In this document: positions 43,311 through 64,000 of the stretch, piece after piece
Numbering within the stretch: the first letter of the stretch is position 1
How the letters are laid out: each line of letters begins with the position of its first letter
Source of the DNA: Candidatus Zixiibacteriota bacterium
GTDB taxonomy: Bacteria > Zixibacteria > MSB-5A5 > GN15 > FEB-12
Reading direction: 5' to 3'
DNA length: 64,000 bases
NCBI GenBank assembly: GCA_029860345.1
Contig: JAOUBJ010000003.1
Location: 68,709-132,708, forward strand
The notes under the pieces: model-generated
Seen by the model: only the letters and a program-made list of their open reading frames with translations
Told to the model about the DNA's origin: nothing
Databases searched by the model: none
Program-made: the position numbers and the translations under genes

Positions 43311-43355
43311 GGGTAGTCTGACATCATAGGCTGAACCCACGCTTGTCATTGGCTG

Positions 43356-43379
43356 AGGCTGCCCCATCCGGGGCAGCTT
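43356..43379 (+). terminator. Conserved post-gene hairpin after member f
   Basis: aggctgcccc-atcc-ggggcagctt. A 10-bp stem including one G-U pair, followed by cgtttgaat. Confidence 0.5.
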
Positions 43380-43544
43380 CGTTTGAATACCGAGCGCGGA
43401 GACGGTCTTGATATGTGACAATTGGAATTGCCGATGATGGGTGCTTGACAACGGTGTCATGCTAGTTCAGCCGACAACTTGAAGGGGCTTTCCACCACGC
43501 TAAACTGTAACATTTGAACTTCAAACAGACCATGGAGGTATGTT

Positions 43545-43805: not shown

Positions 43806-43850
43806 CGATAGTATGATACTTTAGGCTGAACCCACGCTCATCATCGGTAG

Positions 43851-43884
43851 AGGCTGCTCCATCCGGGGCAGCCTTGCTTTATTT
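43851..43884 (+). terminator. Conserved post-gene hairpin plus T-rich tract after member g (end of array)
   Basis: aggctgctcc-atcc-ggggcagcct followed by tgctttatttgtgg. Confidence 0.55.
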
Positions 43885-43952
43885 GTGGATTTGCGCGATA
43901 GCTGGCTCTGCCGCCGGACAGACACAGACAACCACCATGATAGGCCGTCCAA

Positions 43953-47994: not shown

Positions 47995-48385
47995 GCGAGC
48001 GGGTGGCCGTCTCAAACCTTGTTTGGGGCGGCGGACAAGCCCGTTTTTTGTGCTACGCATCCCACGTCCGTCATGCCGGACCTGATCCGGCATCCATCTT
48101 CTCTTGTAGGTCGAAACCCCTGTCCCCAGGGTGTCGTCCTGAGCGCAGTCGAAGGGCGAGGTTTCGACGATGTCGCAAAAGACACGGCTTGACCGTGTCA
48201 CCCTTCGACTCCGCTCAGGGTGAGGTTGAGCTGCTCAAGTTTAGGTTGTGGTGCGTTGGTTGAGGTAGAGACGCGGAACACAAGATAGAGAATCATCACC
48301 TCATGGTGAGCGGAGTCGAACCATGAACTTGGGCAGATATGGGAACCCACCCGCCGCAAAGCCTCTGGGTGGGGTACCTTTTTGA
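47995..48385. repeat. Mosaic of REP-like modules downstream of lepA
   Basis: gggtggccgtctcaaaccttgtttgggg. cgtcatgccggacctgatccggcatcc. ttgtaggtcgaaacccc. cgtcctgagcgcagtcgaagggcgaggtttcgac. acacggcttgaccgtgtcacccttcgactccgctcagggtgaggtt. cacctcatggtgagcggagtcgaaccatgaac. acccacccgccgcaaagcctctgggtgggg. Confidence 0.8.
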
Positions 48386-48421: not shown

Positions 48422-49165
48422 TTACCACAGGTCGGCGGGAAAGGTGATAGCGATTTTCACGTCGGCTTGCGGCGTTACGCTCACGGAAAAAGTCGTTGTA
48501 TCATTGTCGGGCAGGTATACGACCCTAAGGGTCTGATTGCCTGCCGGTATACCGACAAACGAGAAGCCGCCCTGAATCGTGGGATTGATCATACTCGTGG
48601 TCGTACTGCCGACGCCATCGGGATACGTCAGATGAATCTCCAACGAGTCGGAGTAAACAGCACCCGGCATTTCATCGTCGGCATCTACTATGTATCCGTC
48701 AACCGTGTTGCTCAGCAGAGCAGCGGTAGACGTTGCGAGAAGTTTGTCGATGTTCGATCCCGATCCGGTCGAACGAATGAGTGAATCGGAGTAGGTGTAT
48801 AACACGTTCCAACCATCCGTCTTGAATTCGTTCAGATCGATTCCGCGATTAATATAGGGTCCATCCCAGGTTGAGTATCCACCCGCGTTGGTCACCAAGG
48901 CATCCAGGTTGGGCGGCAACGACCCAACATCGCCGACATACCCAAAATCCGTTCGGCTGCTCTCGCTGTATAGATTCGTGTTACCGGCAATAGCTTCGGC
49001 CAGCGCATTCATTTCTTTCAGGGTGTGCTCGTACCTGGCCGTTTCCACCGAGGTCGACAGTTTGCGCACGGCCACCGTAGCCAGTATACCGACGATTATT
49101 ATCACCATGACCAGCTCTATCAGCGTGAAACCCCGGTTGTTGCGAAGGGACAAGATCACTGGCAA
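48422..49165 (-). CDS. Type IV pilin/T2SS pseudopilin-like protein (prepilin N-terminal motif) with a CarboxypepD_reg-like C-terminal domain
   Basis: 247 aa. MPVILSLRNNRG|FTLIELVMVIIIVGILATVAV. Shared block DFGYVGDVGSLPPNLDALVTNAGGYSTWDGPY. C-terminal GYIVDADDEMPGAVYSDSLEIHLTYPDG...GFSFVGIPAGNQTLRVVY. Confidence 0.75.
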   Translation of the reverse strand: MPVILSLRNNRGFTLIELVMVIIIVGILATVAVRKLSTSVETARYEHTLKEMNALAEAIAGNTNLYSESSRTDFGYVGDVGSLPPNLDALVTNAGGYSTWDGPYINRGIDLNEFKTDGWNVLYTYSDSLIRSTGSGSNIDKLLATSTAALLSNTVDGYIVDADDEMPGAVYSDSLEIHLTYPDGVGSTTTSMINPTIQGGFSFVGIPAGNQTLRVVYLPDNDTTTFSVSVTPQADVKIAITFPADLW

Positions 49166-50340
49166 GCTCCAAAACTGATGGCGAAAGTCGAACCGTCGGA
49201 TAAAAGCACCGTCACACTCACATTCGACATGTCCACATTGGCTCCCCCAACAGGGTTAGCCTCGAACGTCTCGATCTGCACTCGGGCACTGTCCCCATCG
49301 GCAACCGCCTGGCCGACAGAGAAGGACGCCAGCTCACCGCTGCCTGCTTTCGGGTTGTTGGAGTCGAACACTGTCGTGCCGTTCCACCTGACATAGCGAT
49401 AATAAGCGGTCGGTGTTGCATAGGTCAAAGTGATACTGTTAACCGAGACCAGACTGCCGCTGTTATTGATTACCCAGAACGAAAAATTGTTGCACTGCGG
49501 CGTGGTGTACACACTGTCGCGTCCGGCCATACTTTCCAGACCGCTGCCACCGGCGCCTGAGACCGCCCAAACATCCGAGGGTAAACCATACTCGCCGTAG
49601 GGCGACGACGCCGGTAAAACCGAAACGAACCGGGTCAGGCTGTCATCGTTGGGCATGTAGACTATCTGAATGTCGTGGTTGCCTACCGGAACGGAGTCGA
49701 ATGAAAAGTACCCACCGACATCGACGGTTGACACCTTGCCAACCATTCCGCCGGTACCGTTGGGAATGGTCAAGGTCACCTCGACAGAATCCATATAGGT
49801 CGGACCGGGTGGCGTACCATCGCGGTCGGAGACAACACCACGAACCTGATTGAAGGTAAAATCGTTTACACTTTTGCCAAGCGTGCGGACAATGTCGGAG
49901 CCGGAGCCGCTGGAAGTTATATTAACCCCAGCATAGTCGTAGTTGACCCCCCAGGCGTCTGTCTTATAGTCGTCGACTTTCTGCGTAAACTCATCGACGA
50001 TGTAGGGACCGTTCCAGGTTGAGTAACCGCCGGGGTTGCTCTTGAGGGCATCCAAATCCGGGGGCAAGGCGCCAACGTCCCCGACATATCCAAAATCGGA
50101 ACGCACACTGTTGTTAGCCAGGGCCGGGTTGCCGACCATCGAAAAAGCCAGCGCCTGCAACTCCTGTTTGGTCTCCTCGACTTTTGCCGTGTCGGACAGA
50201 GTGATAGCCGAACGCAGTGCGACACTAGCCAGAATGGCGCCAATTACGACCACAATGATCACTTCGATCAGAGTGAAACCGGAACGATTGAAAATTCTGT
50301 GTGGCAACCGCGCCTGCATAACAGACCTCACCAAAATCAA
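49156..50340 (-). CDS. Prepilin-like protein, paralog 2 (394 aa, extended C-terminus)
   Basis: ...NRSG|FTLIEVIIVVVIGAILASVAL. DFGYVGDVGALPPDLDALKSNPGGYSTWNGPY. GVVSDRDGTPPGPTYMDSVEVTLTIPNG...GYFSFDSVPVGNHDIQIVY. Overlaps its neighbours by 10 and 4 nt. Confidence 0.75.
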   Translation of the reverse strand: MILVRSVMQARLPHRIFNRSGFTLIEVIIVVVIGAILASVALRSAITLSDTAKVEETKQELQALAFSMVGNPALANNSVRSDFGYVGDVGALPPDLDALKSNPGGYSTWNGPYIVDEFTQKVDDYKTDAWGVNYDYAGVNITSSGSGSDIVRTLGKSVNDFTFNQVRGVVSDRDGTPPGPTYMDSVEVTLTIPNGTGGMVGKVSTVDVGGYFSFDSVPVGNHDIQIVYMPNDDSLTRFVSVLPASSPYGEYGLPSDVWAVSGAGGSGLESMAGRDSVYTTPQCNNFSFWVINNSGSLVSVNSITLTYATPTAYYRYVRWNGTTVFDSNNPKAGSGELASFSVGQAVADGDSARVQIETFEANPVGGANVDMSNVSVTVLLSDGSTFAISFGACQ

Positions 50341-51590
50341 TTACTGTACGCCACTTCCACCCACATCTGTGTGCATCGAGCGGGATGGGTAGCCTTACTG
50401 GTTTTCAATTGAGCGCCGATCTCCAGGTCAATCAGTTCGGTCCAGGTCCAGGCGACTCCGGTGAACGGATTGGCGACCCATAGTTGACTGTGATCCAGGA
50501 AATCGTCAGTCAGGGTTTCTTCAGCGCCGTTGTAATCGGTCCCATTGGTGCGCATGACAATCTGTGCATGGGCGTCTTTGACAAATCTGCGCGCCCGCAT
50601 GTAGACGGTTATCGAACTGATACTGCACGAAGTGTCACTCGGATCAGTGATGGCGTAAATGTCTCTCAGATAAGTCAGGCTGTTTGACTCTACGTAGGTG
50701 ACATTTGAGTCGCTGACCACTTCATCGACACACTGATAGTTCGACCCGCAACCGCTGGTCTGGAGTTCTGCGGCACTGCCTGCTGCCACCGGCCGCAAAG
50801 CCATGCTGCCGGAACCTGCGCAACCTCCGCCCGCGAAGTAGGCTGAGGCAAATTTGTAACTAACCGGACTTTTGTGCCGGGGAAGAATAGTGACATATCG
50901 CAATAGGGTATCGACATTCGGTGTGTATATCAGTCGCACCGGATGCGTGCCCACGGGCAGTGAGTCCAGGGTGAAGGCACCGACCGCGTCCGGTGTGTAG
51001 CTCTTGGTTGCCGAGCCGCCGACTCCGTTCGGTATCGTCACGGTGATATCGACAGAGTCCATGTAGATAACACCCGGCAACGAGTCATCGGCGTCAAGGA
51101 TTGTGCCATCCAGACTGTTGAGTGTATGGTCAGCAACCTGGTCGGCGATCTTGTGGGTCAGTGTCGATCCACTTCCGGATGATTGAATGGCCACACCACC
51201 GGTGTATGCATACAGTGTCCCCCACTCGTCCGTCTTGAATCCGACCGCGTCCTCGCTGATTCCGGGTGGCAGGTAGGGACCATCCCAGGTGCTGTATCCA
51301 CCCGGGTTTTCGTAAAGGGCTTGCAGACTGGCCGGGAAACTCCCGACATCGCCCACATACCCAAACTCCGCCCGCTGCCCGTTGCTTTTGATCGATGGAT
51401 CCCCCACGATGGCCCGAGCCAGCATCTCCATCTCGCGCTCGGTTGCCACCCGCCTGGCATCCTGCACCATCACCGTGGCCGACTGCATAGCCACGGCCGC
51501 CAGCACGCCGATTATGATAATCACGATGGTCAGCTCGATCAGCCCGAAGCCGTGGTTGTTATGAAGTCTGGGTAGCATCAATCTCACCAC
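50337..51590 (-). CDS. Prepilin-like protein, paralog 3 (417 aa, extended C-terminus)
   Basis: ...HNNHG|FGLIELTIVIIIIGVLAAVAM. EFGYVGDVGSFPASLQALYENPGGYSTWDGPY. GTILDADDSLPGVIYMDSVDITVTIPNG...AFTLDSLPVGTHPVRLIY. Confidence 0.75.
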   Translation of the reverse strand: MVRLMLPRLHNNHGFGLIELTIVIIIIGVLAAVAMQSATVMVQDARRVATEREMEMLARAIVGDPSIKSNGQRAEFGYVGDVGSFPASLQALYENPGGYSTWDGPYLPPGISEDAVGFKTDEWGTLYAYTGGVAIQSSGSGSTLTHKIADQVADHTLNSLDGTILDADDSLPGVIYMDSVDITVTIPNGVGGSATKSYTPDAVGAFTLDSLPVGTHPVRLIYTPNVDTLLRYVTILPRHKSPVSYKFASAYFAGGGCAGSGSMALRPVAAGSAAELQTSGCGSNYQCVDEVVSDSNVTYVESNSLTYLRDIYAITDPSDTSCSISSITVYMRARRFVKDAHAQIVMRTNGTDYNGAEETLTDDFLDHSQLWVANPFTGVAWTWTELIDLEIGAQLKTSKATHPARCTQMWVEVAYSN

Positions 51591-52342
51591 AAATCACCGA
51601 ACAACTGAGTTTGCATGAAGCTGTCGCCGCCGGGCGTGAAAGTGACCAGCCGCGTGAGCGTATCATTGGACGGCAGATAGACAGTCCGAAGTGTCTGTTG
51701 TCCGATGGGGATTGAGTCGAACAGTGCCAACCCGTTGGCATCGGGAGATGAGTTGCGAGTGGCAAAACCACCGGCGCCGTCGGGATGAATCAGGATCAAC
51801 CGCACCGAATCTCGGTAAACGCTTCCCGGCGGGTCGTTGTCGAGATCAACCACGGTTACCGTTAGCCGGTTGTACAGTAGATCGTCAAGGGAATTGGCCA
51901 ACCGTTGTGTGATAGTCGTCCCGCCACCGGTGGATACAATGGTGGCCCCGCCCGAAAACTGGTAGGCTCTGCCCCAGGCGTCGGTCTTGAACTCAGACGA
52001 CGGACCACCAACGGCAGCGTAGAAGTCATCCTGCACGTAAGGACCATCCCAGGTGGCCAATCCGCCTGGATTGCTGATCAGGTCATCCAGATTGCTCGGC
52101 AGTGCGCCGACATCGCCGACATAACCGAAATCGATTCGAGAGCCACCGGAAACCAGCGACTGGTTGCCGGTAATGGCCCAAGCCAACTGCTCAAGCTCCC
52201 CTTTGGTTTCTTCGACCCGGACAATGTCGTTGGTCGCCGTCTGCGACTTCATGGCCACCGTAGCGATTATGGCCACAATGACAATGACAATCACCAACTC
52301 CAATAGCGAGTAACCGGCTGTCGAACGTATTTTTGCGAGCAT
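51584..52342 (-). CDS. Prepilin-like protein, paralog 4 (252 aa)
   Basis: MLAKIRSTAG|YSLLELVIVIVIVAIIATVAM. DFGYVGDVGALPSNLDDLISNPGGLATWDGPY. VTVVDLDNDPPGSVYRDSVRLILIHPDG...LALFDSIPIGQQTLRTVY. Confidence 0.75.
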   Translation of the reverse strand: MLAKIRSTAGYSLLELVIVIVIVAIIATVAMKSQTATNDIVRVEETKGELEQLAWAITGNQSLVSGGSRIDFGYVGDVGALPSNLDDLISNPGGLATWDGPYVQDDFYAAVGGPSSEFKTDAWGRAYQFSGGATIVSTGGGTTITQRLANSLDDLLYNRLTVTVVDLDNDPPGSVYRDSVRLILIHPDGAGGFATRNSSPDANGLALFDSIPIGQQTLRTVYLPSNDTLTRLVTFTPGGDSFMQTQLFGDLW

Positions 52343-52439: not shown

Positions 52440-52870
52440 GTGGAGACGCTTGGTAGAAACCCACCCGACGCAAAGCCTCTGGGTGGGCTACCACGTTTCC
52501 ACCTGGCCCACGTCGACGTATACCACGCACAACCCGCCGAAGTGTCAGAGTTCCCGCCACCCTTGTCTGAACTTTGGTAGGGCGGGTCCGTCTTCGCCTG
52601 CGCGCCGCGGCGTGAACCCGCCAGTCTTGTAGATCGAAACCCCCGGCCCGAAGGGGAAGAAACATGGCTTGACCGTGTCGTCCGGAGCGCAGTCGAAGGT
52701 GATAAATCACATTTTCGCGCTCCGCGCGGCTGACGAATGAACCTTCTGTGACGGAGTCTTCGGATTCAGGCACAGACAACCACCTCATCCTGAGCGGAGT
52801 CGAAGGTGATAAATCACATTTTCGCGCTCCGCGCGGCTGACGAATGAACCTTGTTTGGGGCGGATGTAAC
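52440..52870. repeat. Mosaic of REP-like modules, including two copies of a ~60-bp element
   Basis: acccacccgacgcaaagcctctgggtggg. gtagggcgggtccgtcttcgcctgcgc. catggcttgaccgtg. (g)agcg(c/g)agtcgaaggtgataaatcacattttcgcgctccgcgcggctgacgaatgaacc at 52684-52745 and 52790-52851, with a partial third copy at 55175-55207. Confidence 0.85.
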
Positions 52871-54216: not shown

Positions 54217-55107
54217 ATGAGAATGGTAGATTTCAGTGATAAACAGCATCGTGTGAAAATCGGCCTGGCCGAAATGCTCAAAGGCGGCGTGATAATGGAT
54301 GTCACCAACGCCCAGCAGGCATCGATAGCCGAACAGTCCGGCGCAGTGGCCGTAATGGCCCTAGAGCGAGTCCCCTCCGATATTCGCGCTGATGGCGGCG
54401 TGGCCCGCATGGCCGACCCCGACGTTATCGACTCAATCAAAAAAGAAGTGTCCATTCCGGTTATGGCCAAATGCCGGATCGGACATTTTGCCGAGGCTCA
54501 TGTACTTGAAGCTCTGGAAGTGGACTTCATAGATGAGTCCGAGGTGTTAACCCCGGCCGATTACAAACATCATGTCGACAAATGGCCATTCAAGGTGCCG
54601 TTCGTGTGCGGTTGCCGCAATTTGGGTGAAGCCCTCAGACGAATCTCAGAAGGCGCCGCCATGATTCGCACCAAGGGTGAGGCCGGTACCGGTGACGTTT
54701 CCGAGGCGGTCAAACATCTGCGCGAGATCGGATCGGCCATGAAAACGCTCACCGTCATGCCCGATGAAGAGCTATACGGTGTGGCCAAGGAACACCGGGT
54801 GTCAATCGACCTGGTTCGCATGGTGGCCAAAACCGGTGTCCTGCCGGTACCGAATTTCGCCGCCGGCGGCATCGCTACACCGGCCGATGCGTCACTCTGT
54901 ATGTACCTCGGCGCCGAGGCGGTGTTTGTTGGCTCAGGGATTTTCAAGTCGGACAATCCCGAAGCAAGAGCCAAGGCTATCGTTGCCGCTGCCACACATT
55001 ACAAAGATGCAGCGATCGTGGCCGATGCCTCACGCGGTCTCGGTGATGCCATGAAAGGTATGCAGGTCGACAGCATTCCCGACGAGGAGCTGCTGCACAC
55101 CAGGTAG
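54217..55107 (+). CDS. pdxS: Pyridoxal 5'-phosphate synthase, lyase subunit PdxS
   Basis: 296 aa. Near-collinear with canonical PdxS as I recall it: [49 protein letters not shown]...[33 protein letters not shown]...[12 protein letters not shown]...[10 protein letters not shown]. Confidence 0.95.
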
Positions 55108-55315
55108 GCGCAGGCAAGCCCATTAATGGGTCTTACTCGCTTCGTGCGGCCGACGCAACGGAACGATTCTTCGGAGGGTGATAAATCACATTTTCGCACT
55201 CCGCGCCTTTCTCAACATAAGGGCATTGCTGCAATGCCACGGCATGTCAAAACCATAGCGGCGCAAAGACCCGCCGTGGCTTCAGCCGCAACAGTTGGAA
55301 CCAATGGAGGAATCA

Positions 55316-55606
55316 ATGCTACCCAAAGAACAGAAACAGACTTATGGCGCTTTCTACAGTGCGGCTCGCAACAACGATATCCTGCCGCCGGAAACCACCC
55401 TCATGATCCATCTGGCCGCAGCCATGGCTTCAGGATGCGGTCCCTGAATGCAACATTACTTTGGCGTGGCCAAAGAACAAGGTATCTCAGATGACGAGAT
55501 CGGCGCCGTGCAATCCATTGTTATGGCCGTTGTCTCCGGCAAGGTTCGCGCCCAGTTTCGTGATGCGCGGGTAGCAGCCAAAAAACAAGGAAAAGACGCA
55601 GAATGA
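55316..55606 (+). CDS. AhpD-like / carboxymuconolactone-decarboxylase-family protein with in-frame TGA at the second Cys of CxxC (selenoprotein candidate, 96 codons)
   Basis: Missed by the ORF track. GGAGG lies 5 nt before ATG 55316. Translation: MLPKEQKQTYGAFYSAARNNDILPPETTLMIHLAAAMASGCGP-TGA(55445-55447)-MQHYFGVAKEQGISDDEIGAVQSIVMAVVSGKVRAQFRDARVAAKKQGKDAE. The frame is continuous across the TGA. The stop TGA at 55604 overlaps the next gene's ATG as ATGA. Confidence 0.55.
55459..55475 (+). promoter_or_regulatory. SECIS-like hairpin
   Basis: ctttggc-gtg-gccaaag. A perfect 7-bp stem with a 3-nt G-first loop, 17 nt in total, starting exactly 11 nt after the in-frame TGA. Confidence 0.45.
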
Positions 55607-56562
55607 AATTGAATGTATTTATCATGTCGGTCGTCCTGTTGTCGGTACTGGTAGTTGGTGCGTTCGCTGAAGAGCCAGTTGTTCTCACCGGTCCTTACCT
55701 GGGTGAAGAGCCGCCGGGGGACAAGCCCAGGCTGTTCTCACCCGGGGTCGTCTCGACCGGCAAAGAACACAGTGCGGCTATGTTTACCGCCGACGGAACC
55801 GAGTTGTGGTTCGGTCGGATGTTCCCGGCGGCCATCTGGTACATGAAACAAGTCGATGGACAATGGACCGAACCCAAACTGGCGCCGTTTGCCCACCAGG
55901 CTGGTGAGTTGTACCCGTTTCTTGTGCCCAGCGGTGATCGTATTTTCTATAACACCATGCGTCCCCTAACCGAAGGCGGAGCACCGCTCAGGAACGATCA
56001 AGGACATCTGTGGTGTGTCGAGCGCACCGGGTCACAGTGGAAAAAACCAGAGTACCAAAACGCCCGCATAAACTCACTGGCCGGTCTGGCCTGCGGCTCG
56101 GTGGCTGAGAGCGGCACGATGTACCTAAGCGCCCGGACCACCTCCGATGGAAAACCAAACCACGATCTGTTCACATCAGAGTTGGTTGACGGTAGCTACA
56201 GCGAACCAGTGAATCTCGGACAAGTGATCAATAGCCCCGCCCCAGAATTCTGTCCCTTTGTAGCGCCCGACGAGAGCTATCTGATCTTCTCATCGTTCCA
56301 GGGTGGGAGCGGTTTGTCTGACCTGTTTATCAGTTATCGCAACCATGACGGTTCCTGGACCAAACCCAGAAACCTGGGTACTGCCATCAATTCCAGCGCC
56401 AAGGATGATTCCCCGTATGTCACGGCCGACGGAGAATACTTGTTTTTCAACAGCAACCGTCGCTCCGCGCTCAACAGTAGTCCTATCCCCGATGGACCGG
56501 GCAACATGTATTGGGTGAATACCAGCTTCATCGAACGTCTGAAACCCGAGGACATGAAATAG
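55603..56562 (+). CDS. Secreted PD40/TolB-like beta-propeller repeat protein
   Basis: 319 aa. Signal peptide MKLNVFIMSVVLLSVLVVGAFA. Repeats of the type FCPFVAPDESYLIFSSFQGG and DDSPYVTADGEYLFFNSNR. Confidence 0.5.
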   Translation: MKLNVFIMSVVLLSVLVVGAFAEEPVVLTGPYLGEEPPGDKPRLFSPGVVSTGKEHSAAMFTADGTELWFGRMFPAAIWYMKQVDGQWTEPKLAPFAHQAGELYPFLVPSGDRIFYNTMRPLTEGGAPLRNDQGHLWCVERTGSQWKKPEYQNARINSLAGLACGSVAESGTMYLSARTTSDGKPNHDLFTSELVDGSYSEPVNLGQVINSPAPEFCPFVAPDESYLIFSSFQGGSGLSDLFISYRNHDGSWTKPRNLGTAINSSAKDDSPYVTADGEYLFFNSNRRSALNSSPIPDGPGNMYWVNTSFIERLKPEDMK

Positions 56563-56597
56563 CGCCACGCACCGGCTGCGTGGCAGGTAGAAACTGA

Positions 56598-57674
56598 ATG
56601 CGTAAACTATCCATAGTAACCGTTGGTCTGATTTGTTTGGTCGTGTCTGCCTCGTTGTTTGCCGCCAGACGTGTCTGTGACAAATGCAAACAGCCTATCA
56701 CTAAAGGTAGCTGGGTCGAAGTCGACGGTAAGACCTATCACGGCAATCACTTTCTGTGCGATCATTGTTCGAAGCCGATAGGGAAAAAGCGTTTTTACGA
56801 ACACGAAGGAGGCAACTACGACAGCACCTGCTTCGCCGACCATGTTATCTTCCGGTGCGGCTATTGCTCCAAGCCGGTTCTAACCAGCTACGTTGGAGAC
56901 GACACCGCCTTATACCACACCACCTGCTTTTACGATCATGTCGTCGAAAGGTGTATGGTCTGTAAGAATGCGCTGACGGATTCACTCTATTACGACCCGT
57001 TTGGGAACAAGGTATGTTCCGATGACTTCGAGAGAATTCTGCGCTGTCAGTCATGCGCACGGTTTCTGAAAGATGCTCCCGGCATTGAGCATCTCAGATA
57101 CGCCGACGGACGTACAATGTGCGCCTCCTGTACGGAGACGGCTGTCACCGACCTGGATGAAGCTGAGTCTATTATGAAAGGTGTTACCAGGCGTCTCCGT
57201 GGCGAGGGAATCGATATAAAGCCCGAAGTCACGCTGCAACTGGTAACGCTTGACGAACTGGGTCTGCTGTCCGATCACTTCACGCACGACCAGATGGGTA
57301 TAACGATATTTGAGAAGCAGACTATAGAAGGCGGTAGCTGGTCGCATTCGGATTTTCAGATATGTATCCTGGTCGGCCTGCCGGCTTACCATTTCCGCGT
57401 CATCGTAGCGCACGAACTGATGCATGTCTGGATGTTCAACGAGGGACGGCCCGATCCGGAGGACTTGTTGCGCGAGGGAAGTTGCAACTATGCCGCCTAC
57501 CTGATCCTGCGTCGGGACTCATCTGAGAAGGGACAACTCCTTCTGGAACGATTCGTGAACGATGACCACCCTGTTTACGGCGAGGGTTTCCGCAAGGTGA
57601 AAACGTTCGTCGACAAAGCCGGCATCGAGGCATGGCTTGAGTATCTCACCACGTTCACCGACCCTCCCTGGTAA
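56598..57674 (+). CDS. LIM-type zinc-finger repeats fused to a DA1-like HExxH metallopeptidase domain
   Basis: 358 aa with a signal/anchor. CDKCKQPITKGSWVEVDGKTYHGNHFLCDHCSKPI...CFADH and two further Cys/His-rich units. C-terminal VIVAHELMHVWMFNEGRPDPEDLLREGSCNYAAYLIL resembles DA1 HEMMHAW...EEGICQV. Confidence 0.6.
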   Translation: MRKLSIVTVGLICLVVSASLFAARRVCDKCKQPITKGSWVEVDGKTYHGNHFLCDHCSKPIGKKRFYEHEGGNYDSTCFADHVIFRCGYCSKPVLTSYVGDDTALYHTTCFYDHVVERCMVCKNALTDSLYYDPFGNKVCSDDFERILRCQSCARFLKDAPGIEHLRYADGRTMCASCTETAVTDLDEAESIMKGVTRRLRGEGIDIKPEVTLQLVTLDELGLLSDHFTHDQMGITIFEKQTIEGGSWSHSDFQICILVGLPAYHFRVIVAHELMHVWMFNEGRPDPEDLLREGSCNYAAYLILRRDSSEKGQLLLERFVNDDHPVYGEGFRKVKTFVDKAGIEAWLEYLTTFTDPPW

Positions 57675-57675
57675 C

Positions 57676-57780
57676 ACGGTCAAGCCGTGTTCTTCGCGCA
57701 CTTCCTAACCTCATGCTGAGCGGAGTCGAAGCACGCACCACTCAGTCATTCCGGACTTTGATCCGGAATCCATCTTCGTC
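57676..57780. repeat. REP-like modules
   Basis: cacggtcaagccgtg. cctcatgctgagcggagtcgaagcacgcacc. cagtcattccggactttgatccggaatccatcttcgtc. Confidence 0.75.
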
Positions 57781-58146
57781 ATGTGACGCGAAGTCGTGAT
57801 ATGGTACACGGGGACAAAAGGTTGCAACGGATTGGGTTCGTTTTGGGTACTTTCGCTTTTCCCAACAACCCACCCCTGAGCAAATGGGTTCGTTTTGCAT
57901 AGTTACACGTTCGCATAATACATTCGGTAGTGAAATCGTCCGGGCACCAAGTTGCTTTCTCGCGCTCCGCGCATAGTCCCCGATCATTCCTGTAGGCCTG
58001 TAGTTGGTGTTCGAATGTCATCTCCTTTAAGGATGACGAGCAGCCGCGTTTTGGGAGGAGTTGGTGGTGTTTTTGTGATGTCCTGGAAACCCACCGCGAG
58101 CGGATGGGCTGCCTGTCCTCGGGCCGAGAAGGGACGAACCGAATGC

Positions 58147-58175
58147 TTGACTGACAACTTATGCCAACGTATTAT
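58147..58175 (+). promoter_or_regulatory. Sigma-70-like promoter candidate for the GNAT fusion gene
   Basis: TTGACT (58147-58152), a 17-nt spacer, then TATTAT (58170-58175), about 25 nt before ATG 58201. A second TATAAT lies at 58181-58186. Confidence 0.3.
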
Positions 58176-58200
58176 GGGATTATAATAAAGGGATTACTCC

Positions 58201-60297
58201 ATGAAGATCGAGACTTTGGGAGCCTCAAGTGAATTGTTCAAGCAAGTAATCGAGCTTGGGAACAAGAACAGTGCTACACTAGGGTTTATCCCAAAGGGTG
58301 CAATCGGAGAAAAGGCCGATGAAGACAAACTTCTGGTGGCGATTGAGAAGGGCAAGGTTCAAGGGTATCTCTTGTTCGACTTCAAGCTGAGTACGCGAAC
58401 GGCGCGGATAGTTCATCTTTGTGTTGAGAAGGAGAGGCGAGGACACGGAATAGCAAAGCGGCTTTTTCGTGAGCTGGAAGCGACGGTTGGAGATATGGTT
58501 GTTGGCATTAGGGTGCACTGTCGTATAGACTACGAGGAGGCTGCCGTTTGGCCAAAGCTCGGCTTCACTCGATGTGGCACGATACCGGGGCGAAGCAAGG
58601 CTGGAAGTGAGCTCGGCGTTTGGCGCAAGGATACTCCGCTGCCTAGCCTGTTTGACCCGGCCATAGTAACACAAGACACAAGACTACGTGTTGCGCTAGA
58701 CCACAACATCCTTGCAGATTCAATGAAACCCTGCTCTGATGCAACAAGCGGCGCGCATGCCGTCATGGCCGATTGGCTGCCAGAAGTGATTACGTTCTAT
58801 GTGACTCCAGAGATCTTCGAAGATATAGCGCGCGATCCGATAGCCGATCGAGGTGCGAAGACCAAGAGGATGGCTCAGTCATTTGCAAGGATAGCTCGAG
58901 CGTCAGAATTATTCGATGAGTGTAGACACAAAGCAGAAACGCTGTTTCCAGCTCCTCGAAGCGCACAAACCGAATCAGACCTTAGACATATCGCATGGTG
59001 TTGGGCCGGGACAATACAGTACTTTGTCACCAGTGACAGGGAACTCATTCAGAAAAGTAGTGACGTTTACGATCTAACTGATGTCAGAGTGCTACACCCA
59101 GCTGACTTTATTTCTCGGCCTGACAGCCTATTGAGATCAGCAGAGTATCAACCCAAACGCTTTTCAGAGTCGGAACTTCGAATCCGTCGTGTGACAGGGG
59201 ACGATCTTGATGGTATTGAGTCGTCAGTAGCGGATTTGGGGCTGGAAGGGAAGAAGGAGTTTCTGAGGAAGCTTAGACTTCAAATGACACAGCCAGAGCA
59301 GAGGATTACTCAACTCATACTCCATGGAAATACTGTTCTGGCTTTGGTGAGTTGGGAGATCGTCGGGCAGCAGAGACTGTTGGTGCACCTTCTAAGGCTC
59401 GCACCAAGTGAATCGGATAAAACTGTCGCACTGGGAATTGTGAATTGGCTGATTGCTGAATGTCGTTCTAGCAATCTGGAATGCCTCGAAATCGTGGACT
59501 CACACATGACCTCCACGTTGACCAGAGCCTGTTTTGAGTTTGGGCTATTCCAGGAGAAAAGAAAATTGTTTCGATGGGTCGGACAGGGTCGATACGATTC
59601 GAAGGGTGTCAAGACGGCAATTACCGCCCCGAGTTTGCGGTTGACCATTCCACAGAAATACGCAACAACTGTAAAGAGTCAACTAGAGCGAGCAATTGGC
59701 GCCAAAGATATATCTCTCTTACACCAACTTGAGAAACAATTATGGCCTACAAAGCTCAGAGAATTGGAGCTACCGACTTGGGCAGTTAGCATTCGGTCGC
59801 AGTATGCCATGCACTTATTTGATCAAGGTATCGCGGAAGGTGACCTTTTCGGCGGAAGGGCGAAGCTACTTCTCAATATCGAAAACGTGTACTATCGCTC
59901 GGCCACAGTTAGACGACTAAAAGCGCCGGCACGAATCCTGTGGTACGTGAGTAGAGGGCAGGGTCGATATCACGGTAGTAAAGCTATCAGGGCTGCGTCC
60001 TATCTTAATGAAGTACACATAGGTGATCCAAAAACACTTTTCAATTGGTTCCAACATCTAGGCATTTATCGTTGGGAAGATGTTAAACACACAGCGATGA
60101 AGAGAGCCTCTGGGGAGCTTATGGCATTGGTCTTTAGCCACACAGAGATTTTCGACAATCCAATCCCGCGATCCGACCTGAACCAGTTTTGGCAGCAGGA
60201 GAGAGGGCGCAATTTTTATATTCAGCAACCGATCGAAATCCCCGATAATCTGTTCTGGAAGATATATAACCTAGGAATTGGACGATCCGATGAATAA
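58201..60297 (+). CDS. Multidomain protein: N-terminal GNAT acetyltransferase, PIN-like domain, second GNAT-like region, C-terminal ASCH/PUA-like region
   Basis: 698 aa. GNAT motif A: ARIVHLCVEKERRGHGIAKRLFRELE...WPKLGF. PIN-like acidic positions: RVALDHNIL, ITFYVTPEIFEDI, ESDLRHIAWCWAGTIQYFVTSDRELI. The C-terminal ILWYVSRGQG...KAIRAASYLNEVHIGDPKTLF...MALVFSHTEIFDNPI pattern parallels the downstream ASCH protein. Confidence 0.5.
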   Translation: MKIETLGASSELFKQVIELGNKNSATLGFIPKGAIGEKADEDKLLVAIEKGKVQGYLLFDFKLSTRTARIVHLCVEKERRGHGIAKRLFRELEATVGDMVVGIRVHCRIDYEEAAVWPKLGFTRCGTIPGRSKAGSELGVWRKDTPLPSLFDPAIVTQDTRLRVALDHNILADSMKPCSDATSGAHAVMADWLPEVITFYVTPEIFEDIARDPIADRGAKTKRMAQSFARIARASELFDECRHKAETLFPAPRSAQTESDLRHIAWCWAGTIQYFVTSDRELIQKSSDVYDLTDVRVLHPADFISRPDSLLRSAEYQPKRFSESELRIRRVTGDDLDGIESSVADLGLEGKKEFLRKLRLQMTQPEQRITQLILHGNTVLALVSWEIVGQQRLLVHLLRLAPSESDKTVALGIVNWLIAECRSSNLECLEIVDSHMTSTLTRACFEFGLFQEKRKLFRWVGQGRYDSKGVKTAITAPSLRLTIPQKYATTVKSQLERAIGAKDISLLHQLEKQLWPTKLRELELPTWAVSIRSQYAMHLFDQGIAEGDLFGGRAKLLLNIENVYYRSATVRRLKAPARILWYVSRGQGRYHGSKAIRAASYLNEVHIGDPKTLFNWFQHLGIYRWEDVKHTAMKRASGELMALVFSHTEIFDNPIPRSDLNQFWQQERGRNFYIQQPIEIPDNLFWKIYNLGIGRSDE

Positions 60298-60739
60298 ACT
60301 GGATTCCAGCCGGTCAGCCATTTTTTCAATCAAGCCCAAATTTATATCCCTGATCTTTTCAGGGTTAAAGACTGTTGAATTGCGAAGAACGAAGCCACTT
60401 CGAATAAGGAAAGGCACGCGGATTTTCTTCTGGGAGACTTCACCGAGTAAACAACTCGCTGGATTCGCCCACGTAGAGGCAATCATATCTGCCCCCGTTG
60501 AGAAACTGTGGACAATTGTCTCTGAACACGCTGGCGTCACTCGAGAGGAGTTCGATGCCTATTTTGAAGGCTCAGACTTGGGCGTGGCAGTGTTCCTTTC
60601 CGACGCTACAGAATTCCGAAAGAAACCACAACTCTCCGTTCTTCGAAAACACCTCGGATTCATGCCGCCACAGAGCTTTCGCTATGTATCGGCATCTGAA
60701 TCAAGATATATCGGACGTCGAGCCAGTTCGGCTGCGTGA
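60278..60739 (+). CDS. ASCH-domain protein
   Basis: 153 aa. AIFSIKPKFISLIFSGLKTVELRRTKP...RIFFWETSPSKQLAGFAHVEAIISAPVEKLWTIVSEHAGVTREEFDAYFEGSDLGVAVFLSDATEF. Overlaps the upstream gene by 20 nt, or 8 nt if the start is ATG 60290. Confidence 0.6.
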   Translation: MDDPMNKLDSSRSAIFSIKPKFISLIFSGLKTVELRRTKPLRIRKGTRIFFWETSPSKQLAGFAHVEAIISAPVEKLWTIVSEHAGVTREEFDAYFEGSDLGVAVFLSDATEFRKKPQLSVLRKHLGFMPPQSFRYVSASESRYIGRRASSAA

Positions 60740-60745
60740 CCCCCC

Positions 60746-62080
60746 TCACCTAACCTTCCCCTCCAAAAACTCGACGATCTCGGGAGCTTTCATGCGCGTT
60801 TGGTCCATAGAGTCGCGGTCGCGCAAGGTCATGGTCTCATCTTCCAAAGTCTGGCCGTCGATAGTGATGCAATACGGCGTACCGGCTTCGTCCATTCGCG
60901 CATAACGCCGACCAACAGCGCCGGAGACATCGTAGAAGACTTTGAACTGCTTTTTGAGATTGTTGTAGACCTTCTCGGCAAACTCAGGCATGCCGTCTTT
61001 TTTGACCAGCGGAAGGACAGCCGCTTTGATCGGCGCCACCTTCGGTGACAAACGCAAGAAGACCCGTTTCTCACCCTTGATCTCAACTTCGTCGTAGGCA
61101 TCGCACAACAAAGTCAGCAATGTCCGGTCACACCCGGCTGAGGTCTCAACAATGTAAGGCACAAACTTTTCTTCGAACCGTTCGTCTTTGTAACCCATGT
61201 CTTTGCCGGTCGCTTCCTGATGTCGTCCGAGATCAAAGTCGGTCCGGTTGTGCACACCTTCGAGTTCCTGCCAGCCGAACGGAAACTCATACTCGACATC
61301 GTAGGCCGCTTTGGCATAGTGGGCCAGTTCGTCCGGTCCGTGCTCTTTCCAGCGGAGTTTACTCATGTTGAGACCCAGCGACTGATACCACTCCCAGCGC
61401 TGTTGTTTCCAATAGTCGAACCACTTTTCATCTTCTGATGGATGCACGAAGAACTGCATTTCCATCTGTTCGAACTCGCGGGTACGAAAGATGAAATTGC
61501 CCGGCGTGATTTCGTTGCGGAAAGCCTTGCCGATCTGCGCAATTCCGAATGGTATCTTTTGGCGCGAGGAGTTTTTGACGTTGAGGAAATTTACATAGAT
61601 ACCCTGCGCGGTTTCCGGGCGCATGTAGATAGTGTTGGAGCTATCTTCGACCGGACCCATGAACGTTTTGAACATCAGGTTGAACTGTTTCACCTCGGTC
61701 AGGTCGCATTGGTGTTCCACCGGACTTTTCGACGGTTTGTTGGGGCAGCGGGCCTGATCGAGCTGGTCGGCCCGGAACCTCGCCTTGCAGGTGCGGCAGT
61801 CGACCATGGGATCATTGAACTCAGCCACATGACCGGAAGTGTGCCAGACCTGGGGATGCATCAGAATTGCGGCGTCGAGACCTTCGATGTCGTCGCGACG
61901 ATTGGTCATGGCATCCCACCAGTAGTTCTTGAGATTGCGCTTCAACTCCGCGCCCAGCGGACCGTAGTCCCAGCAGGAAGTGAGACCTCCGTAGATTTCC
62001 GATGACTGAAAAATGTAGCCGCGCCGCTTGCACAGCGACACCAGTTTTTCCATCGTATCGTTTTCGTTCTTCTTGGCCAT
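60746..62080 (-). CDS. glyQS: Glycine--tRNA ligase (dimeric GlyQS type)
   Basis: 444 aa. MEKLVSLCKRRGYIFQSSEIYGGLTSCWDYGPLGAELKRNLKNYWW, FRNEITPGNFIFRTREFEQMEMQFF, and a C-terminal anticodon-binding region. Confidence 0.95.
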   Translation of the reverse strand: MAKKNENDTMEKLVSLCKRRGYIFQSSEIYGGLTSCWDYGPLGAELKRNLKNYWWDAMTNRRDDIEGLDAAILMHPQVWHTSGHVAEFNDPMVDCRTCKARFRADQLDQARCPNKPSKSPVEHQCDLTEVKQFNLMFKTFMGPVEDSSNTIYMRPETAQGIYVNFLNVKNSSRQKIPFGIAQIGKAFRNEITPGNFIFRTREFEQMEMQFFVHPSEDEKWFDYWKQQRWEWYQSLGLNMSKLRWKEHGPDELAHYAKAAYDVEYEFPFGWQELEGVHNRTDFDLGRHQEATGKDMGYKDERFEEKFVPYIVETSAGCDRTLLTLLCDAYDEVEIKGEKRVFLRLSPKVAPIKAAVLPLVKKDGMPEFAEKVYNNLKKQFKVFYDVSGAVGRRYARMDEAGTPYCITIDGQTLEDETMTLRDRDSMDQTRMKAPEIVEFLEGKVR

Positions 62081-62093
62081 GCGTCTCTTTCTA

Positions 62094-62912
62094 CTATGTC
62101 AGTTTTGTATCTTTCAACTTCTTCAAGAACTCCAGCGACTTGATTTTCGCCGACAGTCCGGTCTGAAAGCTCATGAATTTGGTCAACGCCTCCAGCAACA
62201 GTTCGGTATCTGCATAAGCTATCGGCAAGGCTGCGGCCTCGGTTAATGAGGCGGTCTGCAGGGCGACAAGCTGCTCAAACCCGGCTGTAGAGAGACGAAT
62301 ATAATGATCCGCCGCCGTTTGGCAAGAACTGCATAACACCCCCCCCCGTTCCGGATAGAACTGTATGTACTCAGTAGGTCGCGTAGCGACAAGAGAGACA
62401 GCTTGCTGTCCGCAGGAGGGGCAGTGGGTGAGCGAGGGGTGGTAGCCGAGGTGCGAAAGCAATCGCAGAAAGAAAGCCAAAAACAAACCCGGTAGCGACC
62501 GTTTGTCGGCCACTTCCACAGCGCTCAAGAAACCGACGAAGTAGTCAAATAGTGTCTCTTGCGGTTCCTCATCGGGCAGCAGCAGGTTGAGCAGTTCGCA
62601 GGCCGCCGAACCATAGGCCAGCCGACCGACCGCGCCGTCTTTCTCAAACGAAAAAGCTTGCATGGGGTCGACGTCGCGGATATACCCGTTCGATTCTTTT
62701 TCCGAGGCGTAGAAAGTCAATTCCATGTGAGCGAACGATACTATCCGACCGCGTTTGGACTTGATACTGCGACCCCCTTTGTCGACCAGCGCGATCTTGC
62801 CGAAGTTGCGGGTGAAAAAAACCACCGTCCGCGAAGATTCGGACCAATTGAACGTCCTCAGAACAACGGCGTCGGTTTTTTCAAGAGCCATAACGTCTAC
62901 CGACCCCTGCAT
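62094..62912 (-). CDS. recO: DNA repair protein RecO
   Basis: 272 aa. OB-fold N-terminus EKTDAVVLRTFNWSESSRTVVFFTRNFGKIALVDKG. Zinc-finger CPSCGQ...CSSC. The start may be ATG 62891. Confidence 0.85.
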   Translation of the reverse strand: MQGSVDVMALEKTDAVVLRTFNWSESSRTVVFFTRNFGKIALVDKGGRSIKSKRGRIVSFAHMELTFYASEKESNGYIRDVDPMQAFSFEKDGAVGRLAYGSAACELLNLLLPDEEPQETLFDYFVGFLSAVEVADKRSLPGLFLAFFLRLLSHLGYHPSLTHCPSCGQQAVSLVATRPTEYIQFYPERGGVLCSSCQTAADHYIRLSTAGFEQLVALQTASLTEAAALPIAYADTELLLEALTKFMSFQTGLSAKIKSLEFLKKLKDTKLT

Positions 62913-63083
62913 ACGGTTTCGCAGGGTCCTGACACCGCCCCCGGCGGGGTTGTGACCCTGCGAAGCTCACTATGCAAACAGAGAATCCGAACGAGAGAGA
63001 TCGGCGGTTCTCACGACCTCCGCGGGAGGTCGAAGGAACCACCGAAACAACCTCCGAGAATACCGCTTCGTCCGCCATAACGC

Positions 63084-63449
63084 CTACCGACCGCGGTAGA
63101 GGTAGATGGTTTCCTCGGGGCGGGCCATGTGGAAGCGGGTGCGGGCGATCCGTTCCAGGTAGATCGTGTCCGATTCGAGCATCTTGCGGACGCGATCGTT
63201 GTCCACCAGGTTTACCAACAGTTGCCTATTGGATTCGGCCAGTTCCGTCTTTTCCATTTCGAGGCGAATGATGCGCGGAATACTGTAGGTACCGACCATC
63301 AGCGAGTAGAAAAACAACAGCCCCACCGACCAAAATGCGTAACGGACGACTTTTCGTCTGAGACGGGCATCGGCGGAGGAGAGCTTTTTGACAAAACTTT
63401 CAGCCAACGATGGCCTTTTCGACTTAGTTTTTCTCACACGCGGACACAT
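63084..63449 (-). CDS. ftsB: Septum formation initiator (FtsB/DivIC family)
   Basis: 121 aa. Single TM (YAFWSVGLLFFYSLMV), then a coiled coil IIRLEMEKTELAESNRQLLVNLVDND and IARTRFHMARPEETIY. Confidence 0.7.
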   Translation of the reverse strand: MCPRVRKTKSKRPSLAESFVKKLSSADARLRRKVVRYAFWSVGLLFFYSLMVGTYSIPRIIRLEMEKTELAESNRQLLVNLVDNDRVRKMLESDTIYLERIARTRFHMARPEETIYLYRGR

Positions 63450-63554
63450 GGACAGAAGGAAACGGGGGCAGGTTCACGATGCAAGGTTTAACTGGAGACG
63501 GCTGTCGGGTACTCTTCATTACGGCGGGTTTGCCTTCAGACCAACCAACCAGAG

Positions 63555-64000
63555 TCAGTCACAGACCGCCGGTGCAGGTCCTCCGGCAAACATGAAGTCC
63601 ACGAGATAAACCAGGTCGGCAATGTCGATAGGTCCATCACCGTTGAGATCAGCTTCCTTAGGACACGGCGGATAAGGACCGGCTACGAACATCCAATCGA
63701 CAAGGTAGACCAGATCCGCAATATCTATGACTTCAGCCGGGTCTCCATTGACGTTTCCTCGGACGCCGGTGCAGCATGGCTCACAGACGTCGCCGACACC
63801 GTTGCTGTCACTGTCTTGCTGGTCAACATTATCAATGTGCGGGCAGTTGTCGCAGCTATCCGGAATGCCATCGTTGTCGCTGTGTAGATTGTCATCGAAA
63901 CCGGGGCAGAGGTCGCAACTGTCTCCCACGCCGTCCAGGTCACTGTCCTGTTGGTCGGTGTTAGCCAGTTCCGGGCAATTGTCGCAATCATCTCCGAGAA
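63555..64000 (-). CDS. C-terminal part of a secreted protein with thrombospondin type-3-like Ca-binding repeats and two dockerin-like repeats; 5' end beyond the window
   Basis: The frame stays open from 63929 up to 64000 (...[76 protein letters not shown]). Then [24 protein letters not shown] and [21 protein letters not shown]. Confidence 0.6.

Follow-up and report, generated by a model that had tools for sequence, protein, structure and literature searches.

In a 64,000-nucleotide (64 kb) stretch of contig JAOUBJ010000003.1 from a Candidatus Zixiibacteriota bacterium (assembly GCA_029860345.1), hereafter called the window, two overlapping plus-strand genes were found that together form a compact cassette. 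The larger gene (58201..60297) is an open reading frame (ORF) from an ATG that encodes a protein of 698 amino acids (aa), the predicted effector or 'toxin' of the pair. The smaller gene (60278..60739) encodes an ASCH protein of 153 aa if translation begins at TTG 60278 or of 149 aa if it begins at ATG 60290, the start used in public gene calls, and the NCBI name of the product, taken from a Zixibacteria metagenome-assembled genome (MAG), is 'ASCH domain-containing protein'. The genes overlap by 20 nt with the TTG start or by 8 nt with the ATG start, and the small gene is translationally coupled to the large one. The surrounding gene order is pdxS, a PD40 protein, a LIM/DA1-like protein, the large and small genes, glyQS, and recO. 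The minus-strand glyQS ORF starts at 60746, and the 6-nt spacer to the small gene that had been given in a preliminary description of this DNA was confirmed by ORF calling. A scan for terminators between the convergent small gene and glyQS found none, and no third gene of the cassette is present at the locus, where glyQS follows after 6 nt; nor was a general third gene seen among the sampled loci. Because the gene order is identical in three independent metagenome assemblies, mis-assembly of the insert was ruled out. The gene pair has a G+C content of 48.8%, compared to 54.8% for the remaining window (z = -3.9), and is the minimum among same-length stretches of the whole 64 kb. G+C at third codon positions is 48% in the pair versus 62–69% in five neighbouring genes. 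Recounting the five 60-nt samples from which a low-GC insert had been proposed reproduced the hand counts exactly (45, 43.3, 46.7, 55, and 65%). The two-gene cassette is foreign to this genome and was horizontally acquired.

The domains of the large protein were examined with an AlphaFold (AF2) model built on 12 homologs, which had a predicted local distance difference test (pLDDT) score of 79.9. As GNAT matches swamped the full-length fold search, a second model was made for aa 322–698 (pLDDT 87, predicted TM-score 0.85). The resulting order is a GNAT domain, a PIN domain, a GNAT fold, a helical linker (aa 467–514), and a PUA/ASCH-like barrel, and all four domains that had been read from the letters alone (GNAT, PIN-like, GNAT-like, and ASCH-like) were supported. 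Domain 1 (aa 1–145, 58201..58635) is a canonical GNAT with motif A at R80-G-H-G83-I-A85, which is conserved as R80-G-x-G-[IV]-A across the family, and residues H72, L73, C74, R80, C107, R108, D110, and W117 are conserved at 94–100%. This domain matches the Pfam families Acetyltransf_1 (E 4.7e-8) and Acetyltransf_10 (E 4.6e-7), and Foldseek aligned it with Ard1/NatC/Naa10 (E 2e-8, TM-score 0.8). Its top 50 fold matches are Ard1/Naa/RimI-like, a PDB profile search (E ≤ 1) lists Ard1, AAC, YpeA, and NMT, and the best NCBIfam match, under its cutoff, is RimI.

These matches bear on the suggestion that the GNAT is a toxin of the TacT/AtaT/ItaT type that acetylates aminoacyl-tRNA. The closest relatives of the domain (Ard1/Naa10/RimI) acetylate alpha-amino groups, which is the same chemistry as aminoacyl-tRNA acetylation, and aminoacyl-tRNA was also proposed as the target of related systems by Bell, Wolf, and Koonin (2020; PMC7641849). 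However, TacT, AtaT, KacT, and ItaT are absent from both the PDB sequence matches (E ≤ 1) and the top 50 fold matches, so the specific similarity to these toxins that had been assumed was not recovered. The partner is also not an RHH/DUF1778 antitoxin, and the gene order is the reverse of that in TacAT/AtaRT, where such an antitoxin lies upstream; here the ASCH partner lies downstream. A toxin of this type is considered quite improbable.

Domain 2 (aa 160–311, 58678..59133) is a PIN-type nuclease domain with the acidic residues D167, E204, D260, and T277-x-D279, all of which are 96–100% conserved in 116 sequences (98–100% for the four acidic residues themselves). The Pfam match in the window protein itself is sub-threshold (E 0.21); PIN_3 matches were obtained in 14 of 19 family members, with a best E-value of 5.9e-10, and PF01850 matches in five. 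A PDB sequence search with this domain returned VapC as its sole match, which is not significant (E 0.27). Domain 3 (aa 325–465, 59173..59595) was recognised from structure only, as a GNAT fold without a recognisable acetyl-CoA motif A. The Foldseek matches are AAC(6'), Ta0374, and Ard1 (E 2e-6 to 1e-4, TM-score 0.5–0.68). No Pfam family matched this domain when aa 322–698 of 23 members were searched, and hhalign against the N-terminal GNAT gave a probability of 0.9%. Strong conservation is limited to E349 and R399, with no Gly-rich loop after R399, and the domain is probably non-catalytic. The large protein thus has two catalytic centres that are apparently competent, the N-terminal GNAT and the VapC-like PIN.

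Domain 4 (aa 517–698, 59749..60294) is a PUA/ASCH-like beta-barrel and a paralogue of the small partner. BLASTP between the barrel and the small protein returned nothing beyond a spurious match of 24 residues, and establishing their homology required profile comparison. With hhalign, the family profile of the barrel gave a full-length alignment to the small-protein family (135 columns, probability 97%, E 9.8e-11), whereas five control pairings scored at most 1%. In Foldseek, ranks 1–8 are occupied by chains of ZmASCH from Zymomonas mobilis (PDB 5GUQ/5Y6B; E 1e-7, TM-score 0.75–0.81). Neither Pfam EVE (PF01878) nor ASCH matched this domain at E ≤ 10 in 23 members. With the PIN_3 matches in family members and this profile alignment, the assignment of PIN and ASCH-like domains to the large protein held up in domain searches. 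The barrel is predicted to be a nucleic-acid reader or targeting module.

ZmASCH is not only the best fold match of the barrel but also the closest characterised homolog of the small protein, to which it aligns over the full length (5GUQ, E 1.6e-19). The Pfam ASCH match (PF04266) of the small protein is marginal, at 21.7 bits against a gathering score of 21.2; many of its homologs carry precomputed PF04266 matches, and its earlier assignment as an ASCH protein proved correct. The ASCH octapeptide (GxKxxExR) is found at G29-L-K31-T-V-E34-L-R36, and K31, E34, and R36 are invariant in all 81 partners compared, as are Y95, P131, Q132, and Y136. Both the small protein and ZmASCH have the GxKxxExR motif, a PPQS motif, and an equivalent of Lys53, while Tyr47 of ZmASCH corresponds to Trp52 in the small protein (Tyr in 96% of partners). 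At the positions of the ASCH motif in the barrel of the large protein, E561 and Y564 replace Lys and Glu, and R566 is kept; conservation there is 94% for E561, 100% for Y564 and Y565, and 88% for R566. With Lys, Glu, and Arg invariant in the partner and E561/Y564/R566 in the barrel, the two can be described as paralogous modules that diverged into two different constrained pockets.

ZmASCH, which has been characterised in isolation, binds nucleic acids and is a Mg-dependent RNase that cleaves single-stranded RNA but not single-stranded DNA. According to a 2026 preprint, ASCH proteins including ZmASCH remove N4-acetylcytidine (ac4C) from tRNA in vitro, with ac4C34 as the site for ZmASCH, and the Lys and Glu of the ASCH motif are essential for deacetylation in TthASCH, EOLA1, and TRIP4. 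The idea that the partner may be a deacetylase antidote therefore gains support from the invariant Lys/Glu/Arg residues and from the in vitro removal of ac4C. In a separate observation, alphaproteobacterial homologs of the small protein found as plasmid matches (H19, H21–H23, and H26) are 'helix-turn-helix domain-containing proteins' of approximately 264 aa from Paracoccus, Azospirillum, Methylobacterium, Rhizobium, and Sinorhizobium. ZmASCH, the one relative with biochemical data, was deposited under the same helix-turn-helix name, which suggests that it may itself be the partner in an operon of the GNAT-EVE type.

Having parsed both proteins, we compared the pair with systems already known from genomes. 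Bell, Wolf, and Koonin (2020; PMC7641849) described an EVE/PUA-like domain positioned C-terminal to a GNAT-like domain, often with an N-terminal PIN, in operons that 'almost all' carry a separate ASCH protein. Operons of the PIN form were found near defence systems, type I restriction-modification (R-M) among them, and those of the PIN-less form in prophages, a third gene for an AAA_17-type ATPase was frequent but not invariable, and toxin-antitoxin (TA) or defence roles were predicted for these systems, of which no module had been experimentally characterised as of 2020 (PMC7641849). A text search of the same paper for a GNAT-PIN-GNAT-EVE architecture returned none. The class also appears in PADLOC-DB v2 as the phage-defence candidate PDC-M11 (components A and B), which belongs to an unpublished set and whose lone mention in the searchable literature is as a detected system in E. 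coli O157:H7. An earlier computational description of the PIN-GNAT-PUA + ASCH operon, with a proposal of DNA-base acetylation, was reportedly given by Iyer et al. in 2013 (NAR). The class has been predicted from genomes since 2013 and is listed in PADLOC as a candidate, and the remark in the preliminary description that the arrangement had not been seen described does not hold for its core.

The match of the small protein to PDC-M11B is full-length (E 6.3e-29), and the large protein matches three PDC-M11A models (E 1.4e-12, 7e-7, and 1e-6). The latter matches are partial and cover the PIN and C-terminal parts only, the PIN domain aligning to model positions 4–154. PDC-M11A was matched by 12 of 12 family members. 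In Escherichia phage PhiR47_2 (PV340567.1), two overlapping genes encode proteins of 357 and 125 aa that are named 'GevT toxin' and 'GevA antitoxin' in the GenBank annotation only, and these match PDC-M11A and PDC-M11B at 2e-133 and 7e-52, respectively. The large protein matches far less strongly than GevT does, and nothing in the models corresponds to its first 160 residues. GevA is 27% identical to the small protein over the full length (BLASTP E 1e-18), and GevT corresponds to aa 322–698 of the large protein (GNAT fold plus PUA) in a collinear hhalign alignment of 284 columns (E 2e-4). GevT is prophage-borne and lacks both the PIN and the N-terminal canonical GNAT. A longer alignment was obtained with a set of five GevT-like proteins from phages, for which the 492-aa ORFD of archaeal prophage psiM100 served as the master: aa 160–698 are collinear with this psiM100 ORFD/GevT family over 463 columns (hhalign probability 93.9%, E 1.6e-7). 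A search of viral folds in BFVD returned single-domain matches only and no two-domain GevT-like match. On the basis of the profile and collinearity evidence, the large protein was therefore described as a PIN-GNAT-PUA effector with an extra N-terminal canonical GNAT.

Like members of the (PIN)-GNAT-EVE + ASCH class, the window locus encodes a PIN, a GNAT-like domain, and a C-terminal PUA-superfamily barrel in one protein, with an ASCH gene in the operon. It differs in having a canonical GNAT before the PIN, an internal GNAT fold without motif A, and no AAA_17 gene. Its C-terminal barrel is nearer to ASCH proteins of the ZmASCH type than to Pfam EVE; as both EVE and ASCH are members of the PUA-like superfamily, the missing EVE match weakens the label 'EVE' and not the resemblance to the class. 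The pair is very probably a member or variant of this class (PDC-M11, GevT/GevA). The system class is already known from genomes, and the four-domain variant with an extra N-terminal GNAT was not found described.

Close homologs of the large protein are approximately 700 aa long and are named merely 'GNAT family N-acetyltransferase'. A profile of aa 322–698 recovered 1,590 clusters at 50% identity, 1,069 of them at E ≤ 1e-30, and the four-domain architecture was present in 227 of the 269 fetched relatives. A scan of one genome per species was positive in 303 of approximately 185,000 species genomes, with hosts among Chloroflexota, Planctomycetota, Verrucomicrobiota, Bacteroidota, Cyanobacteria, Nitrospira defluvii, Archangium, and others. 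This sub-family, distinguished by the added canonical GNAT and an internal GNAT fold that looks degenerate, thus comprises at least 1,000 clusters at 50% identity from many phyla. In 77 of 80 fetched loci, again from many phyla, a homolog of the ASCH protein (E 1e-14 to 1e-65) is encoded directly downstream on the same strand, mostly with an overlap of 1–23 nt; of the remaining three, two carry a broken large ORF and the third has no partner gene. The conservation of the two genes as neighbours, which had been proposed as a check, is therefore borne out, and the pairing of the large and small genes is obligate. The locus without a partner (L031 9938-20484, from an Abditibacterium MAG) holds the sole intact large gene of this kind. 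Three proteins are encoded downstream of it: one of 259 aa in which an HKD/PLD-like motif was read by eye, one of 1034 aa that is helicase-like (by eye, SNF2-like), and one of 1433 aa that groups with the Type IIG R-M enzymes. The locus may be a variant with another gene in place of the partner.

The closest relatives of the window proteins, with approximately 60% aa identity, are found at loci L006 and L015, where the cassettes are equally low in G+C (49% versus 55%). Blastn of the window against these two loci gave similarity from 58187 to 60870. Common to all three are also approximately 370 nt of upstream leader, including the duplicated ATGGGTTCGTYTTG, and, unexpectedly, approximately 130 nt past the stop codon of the ASCH gene. 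The DNA common to these genomes is bounded on the right by the 3' end of the minus-strand glyQS gene (60746..60870, its last ~41 codons). In the relatives, a glyQS remnant directly follows the ASCH gene (L015 3326–3459, L006 4284–4418), and in L015 it reads as the 28-aa MTLRDRDSMEQSRMKAPYIVEFLEGKVR ahead of lepA. These 28 codons are nearly identical to the C-terminus of GlyQS in the window, and the next complete gene in the relatives is lepA. Given the similarity in the leader and past the stop codon, the shared unit was placed at approximately 57,830–60,870. On these alignments, its transfer from one genome to another appears to have occurred through illegitimate recombination and to have included the scrap of glyQS. 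No copy of the glyQS 3' end was found on the left side and hence no att-like duplication, a result that lends no support to site-specific integration with att duplication.

The same evidence of mobility bears on the reading of the cassette as a housekeeping or regulatory pair for RNA modification, in which the GNAT would write an acetyl group on tRNA or rRNA (e.g., ac4C) and the ASCH protein would erase it, so that translation is tuned. GNAT domains write ac4C in TmcA/NAT10, ASCH proteins erase ac4C from tRNA, and the neighbours in the window are translation-related or housekeeping genes (glyQS, recO). Against this are the foreign composition, the sporadic distribution, the lineage-specific insertion sites, the carriage by phages and plasmids, the fused PIN with an intact active site, the lack of specific similarity of the GNAT to TmcA/NAT10, and the movement of the glyQS scrap with the cassette. 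A housekeeping pair is regarded as highly improbable.

The genomic context of the pair was then examined for links to defence. Flanking genes vary from lineage to lineage. When the 149 proteins flanking the pair in 26 loci were searched with PADLOC, very strong matches were obtained to SoFic, PDC-S41, type III and type I methylases, HmaC, HEC-05, TmtA, and PDC-S02, and four of the 149 are phage-type integrases; many of the rest are clearly housekeeping proteins. The resulting enrichment near defence genes in a subset of loci, judged without a background comparison, is suggestive. On a Calothrix plasmid the pair is located between an Eco29kI R-M system and a McrBC-like system and is followed by an AAA_5 ATPase, and an AAA_5 ATPase also follows the pair on a Nostoc plasmid. 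The pair is preceded in gut Bacteroidota and in one Bacilli MAG by genes for a Type IIG R-M enzyme and an SMC/AAA_15 (Septu-like) ATPase, which come before an HNH gene where one is present. An HNH_5 protein of approximately 260–300 aa is encoded directly upstream of the pair in L008, L030, L050, L059, L062, L066, and L069 and directly downstream in L060, that is, in eight of approximately 78 loci from Planctomycetota, Verrucomicrobiota, and Bacteroidota, the window locus not being among them. This neighbour may be an accessory component or may merely belong to an adjoining Septu-like system. Co-occurrence with defence islands, which had been suggested as a further check, is therefore seen in a subset of genomes and not at the window locus.

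These neighbours bring in an alternative similar to type IV restriction, that is, modification-dependent restriction in which modified bases of invading DNA are recognised by the two PUA-like modules (the barrel and the ASCH partner) and the DNA is then destroyed by a nuclease, either the PIN or the neighbouring HNH protein, with the GNAT perhaps marking self or foreign DNA in line with the DNA-base acetylation proposal of Iyer et al. PUA, EVE, and ASCH domains are modified-base readers in many restriction systems, Bell et al. infer that the ASCH partner binds DNA (PMC7641849), the ASCH-like 5-hydroxymethylcytosine glycosylase BapA defends against T-even phages, and some partners are labelled 'EVE domain' by PGAP. 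The position of the Calothrix pair beside McrBC-like and cytosine-methylase R-M systems and the recurrence of the HNH_5 neighbour, upstream in seven loci and downstream in one from three phyla, point the same way. However, the nuclease fused in the large protein is a VapC-like PIN and not one of the HNH, PD-(D/E)xK, PLD, or GIY-YIG DNases typical of type IV enzymes, and ZmASCH acts on RNA substrates, as described above. Every partner also has the hydrolase-type Lys/Glu dyad, which a pure reader would not need, and the HNH neighbour is missing from approximately 90% of loci, including that of the window. Restriction of this kind is judged unlikely.

Homologous pairs are also present in temperate phages. 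In phage PhiR47_2 (L088 2944–4372), GevT/GevA is located directly downstream of cI in the same orientation and ahead of kil. In lambda, the position after cI is occupied by rexAB. The placement of GevT/GevA at the corresponding position suggests an exclusion function expressed in lysogens. A second prophage example provides a curious observation in view of the tRNA-target hypothesis: in Lactobacillus prophage Lj965 (L095 777–2872), a cluster of phage tRNA genes (Ser, Glu, Tyr, Phe) immediately precedes a GevT-like + ASCH pair.

Carriage on plasmids and prophages would also be expected of a selfish addiction cassette, in which a PIN and/or GNAT toxin would be bound stoichiometrically by the ASCH protein and loss of the cassette would lead to post-segregational killing, with no anti-phage role. 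The tight operon of two overlapping genes, the patchy distribution across species genomes together with the low G+C, the toxin/antitoxin labels in GenBank (annotation only), and the housekeeping neighbours in the window are in line with such a cassette. As in VapBC and TacAT/AtaRT, there are a PIN acidic quartet, a GNAT motif A, and a small co-transcribed partner. Unlike in VapBC, there is no gene for a DNA-binding antitoxin (AbrB/RHH/PhD/HTH), and the partner is downstream and enzyme-like; unlike in both, the two toxin-type domains are fused in one 698-aa protein. Moreover, a sequestering antitoxin would not need an invariant dyad of catalytic type, the pair belongs to a PADLOC phage-defence candidate class and recurs beside R-M and Septu-like genes, and the placement after cI in a lambdoid phage suggests exclusion expressed by the lysogen. 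TA and abortive-infection roles can also coexist, and an addiction cassette with no further role is considered distinctly unlikely.

We instead favour a toxin-antidote-type conflict module of the (PIN)-GNAT-EVE + ASCH class acting on RNA, although as a whole this statement has only about an even chance of being correct. Its parts differ in strength. That the large and small proteins stand in a toxin-antidote relationship is rather probable, and the small protein is predicted to be the antidote; for an anti-phage role of the cassette, the arguments on the two sides are about in balance; and an enzymatic antidote, namely a deacetylase, is possible but doubtful. The toxicity, the RNA or tRNA target, the acetylation chemistry, the mechanism of the antidote, and the anti-phage role are what we infer from domain content and context. 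The earlier reading of the cassette as a toxin/antidote or defence module, likewise a prediction, agrees with the PADLOC matches, the neighbours in a subset of loci, and the GevT/GevA annotation.

In the favoured model, the large protein would be an effector with catalytic GNAT and PIN domains on a targeting scaffold made of the GNAT fold without motif A and the barrel. The barrel would dock the effector on RNA, most plausibly tRNA, which is the most economical target because tRNA substrates are documented for GNAT toxins, VapC-type PINs, and ASCH proteins alike. The GNAT could then acetylate the RNA, at a base amine or at the alpha-amine of an aminoacyl-tRNA, and/or the PIN could cleave it, which would arrest translation. 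The ASCH partner would counteract the effector, either as a hydrolase that removes the acetyl mark or by binding at the same site on the RNA or protein, and if phage infection or loss of the cassette tipped this balance, abortive infection or addiction would follow. The invariant dyad of catalytic type would be easier to explain by an enzymatic antidote than by sequestration, although either may apply. The proposed logic is that of DarT/DarG, a two-gene, defence-linked system in which a toxin writes a mark on nucleic acid and an antitoxin hydrolase removes it. The folds and chemistry are unrelated (single-stranded DNA ADP-ribosylation and a macrodomain versus putative acetylation and an ASCH protein), and the resemblance is in logic only. 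A more elaborate version, which we consider unlikely, is that of a writer, reader, and eraser: the GNAT would acetylate a base (e.g., cytidine N4), the barrel would guide the PIN by reading the site or the mark, and the ASCH protein would erase the mark until infection, with tRNA, other RNA, or phage nucleic acid as the target. If true, this would be an acetyl counterpart of DarTG and would provide a natural substrate and a dedicated writer for the ASCH ac4C 'erasers'. As the motif is kept in the partner and replaced in the barrel of the effector, and as ASCH proteins are reported to deacetylate ac4C in tRNA, the mechanism is directly testable. If the partner does erase an acetyl mark written by the effector, this would be a new chemistry for TA or anti-phage systems and a natural context for the ASCH 'erasers'; if not, the pair would be one more TA-like cassette with an unusual antitoxin.

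Several observations weigh against a conflict module that acts on RNA. Domain 1 resembles protein N-alpha-acetyltransferases (Ard1/RimI) and not TacT/AtaT or TmcA. ZmASCH is inactive on free ac4C, and no significant drop in ac4C was seen in vivo. From HTH-ASCH and HsdS-ASCH fusions, Bell et al. argue for binding of modified DNA by the ASCH partner and for a possible regulatory role (PMC7641849). The alignment that places E561 and Y564 at the dyad follows a 17-residue insertion and could be shifted, and the hhalign comparison with E. coli GevT itself is weak, with a probability of 0.5% for the single sequence and 44% for a small family alignment. The window neighbours are housekeeping genes with no defence island at this locus, and housekeeping genes likewise make up many of the 26 neighbourhoods sampled. 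Finally, literature searches found no experimental paper on any member of the class, the GevT/GevA labels being annotation only.

The leader upstream of the large gene, which can be aligned to L006 and L015, contains several short conserved elements. A direct repeat TGGGTTCGTTTTG is present in two plus-strand copies (57833–57845 and 57885–57897, within the leader region 57833..57897), with two matches compared to 0.08 expected by chance, and this duplication is possibly an operator-like repeat. Of the fetched loci, L006 and L015 alone carry two copies of ATGGGTTCGTYTTG ahead of the large gene. A plus-strand block, GGAGTTGGTGGTGTTTTTGTGA (58041..58080), is 84% identical to L015 592–629. In the 526 nt upstream of the large gene, no conserved ORF is common to the relatives, only short conserved blocks. 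A consensus scan of the plus strand identified a promoter-like TTGACT-17-TATTAT (58147–58175, 10/12 matches) and a TATAAT (58181–58186) that is followed by GGGATTACTCC and the ATG of the large gene, and the GACTGAC and GGGATAATA boxes are kept in the two closest relatives. The sigma-70-like promoter that had been ascribed to the insert is thus present as a motif and conserved in L006/L015, but the number of such sites in the region is not above chance (two found versus 2.9 expected from shuffled sequence). A cis-acting RNA element in the leader was considered and dropped because an Rfam scan of 55000–64000 gave no match and folding of the leader gave no RNA-structure signal (z = +0.69).

The insert had also been described as lying beside a repeat mosaic. 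Part of this mosaic (57706–57740) is a copy of a hairpin-forming repeat with the core CTCATGCTGAGCGGAGTCGAAGCATGA that is dispersed in intergenic DNA of the window (also at 925–1254, 31965–32039, 48191–48330, and 52678–52857) and is therefore not specific to the insert, and the mosaic was rejected as a source of insert ends or att sites. The repeat looks like a repetitive extragenic palindrome (REP) or miniature inverted-repeat transposable element (MITE), and it also occurs in L006 and L015 with 93% identity over 28 nt. Other repeats elsewhere in the window include ~500-nt periodic repeats in seven copies (40697–43900), four paralogous segments (48852–52315), and tandem repeats of 249, 114, 44, and 96 nt (34028–34525, 19960–20187, 38859–39034, and 966–1253, respectively). 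The gene upstream of the cassette (56598–57674, plus strand) encodes a 358-aa protein with LIM zinc-finger domains (Pfam E 1e-15) and a DA1-like peptidase region (E 3e-12), an architecture typical of DA1 proteins in plants that would not be expected in a bacterial MAG.

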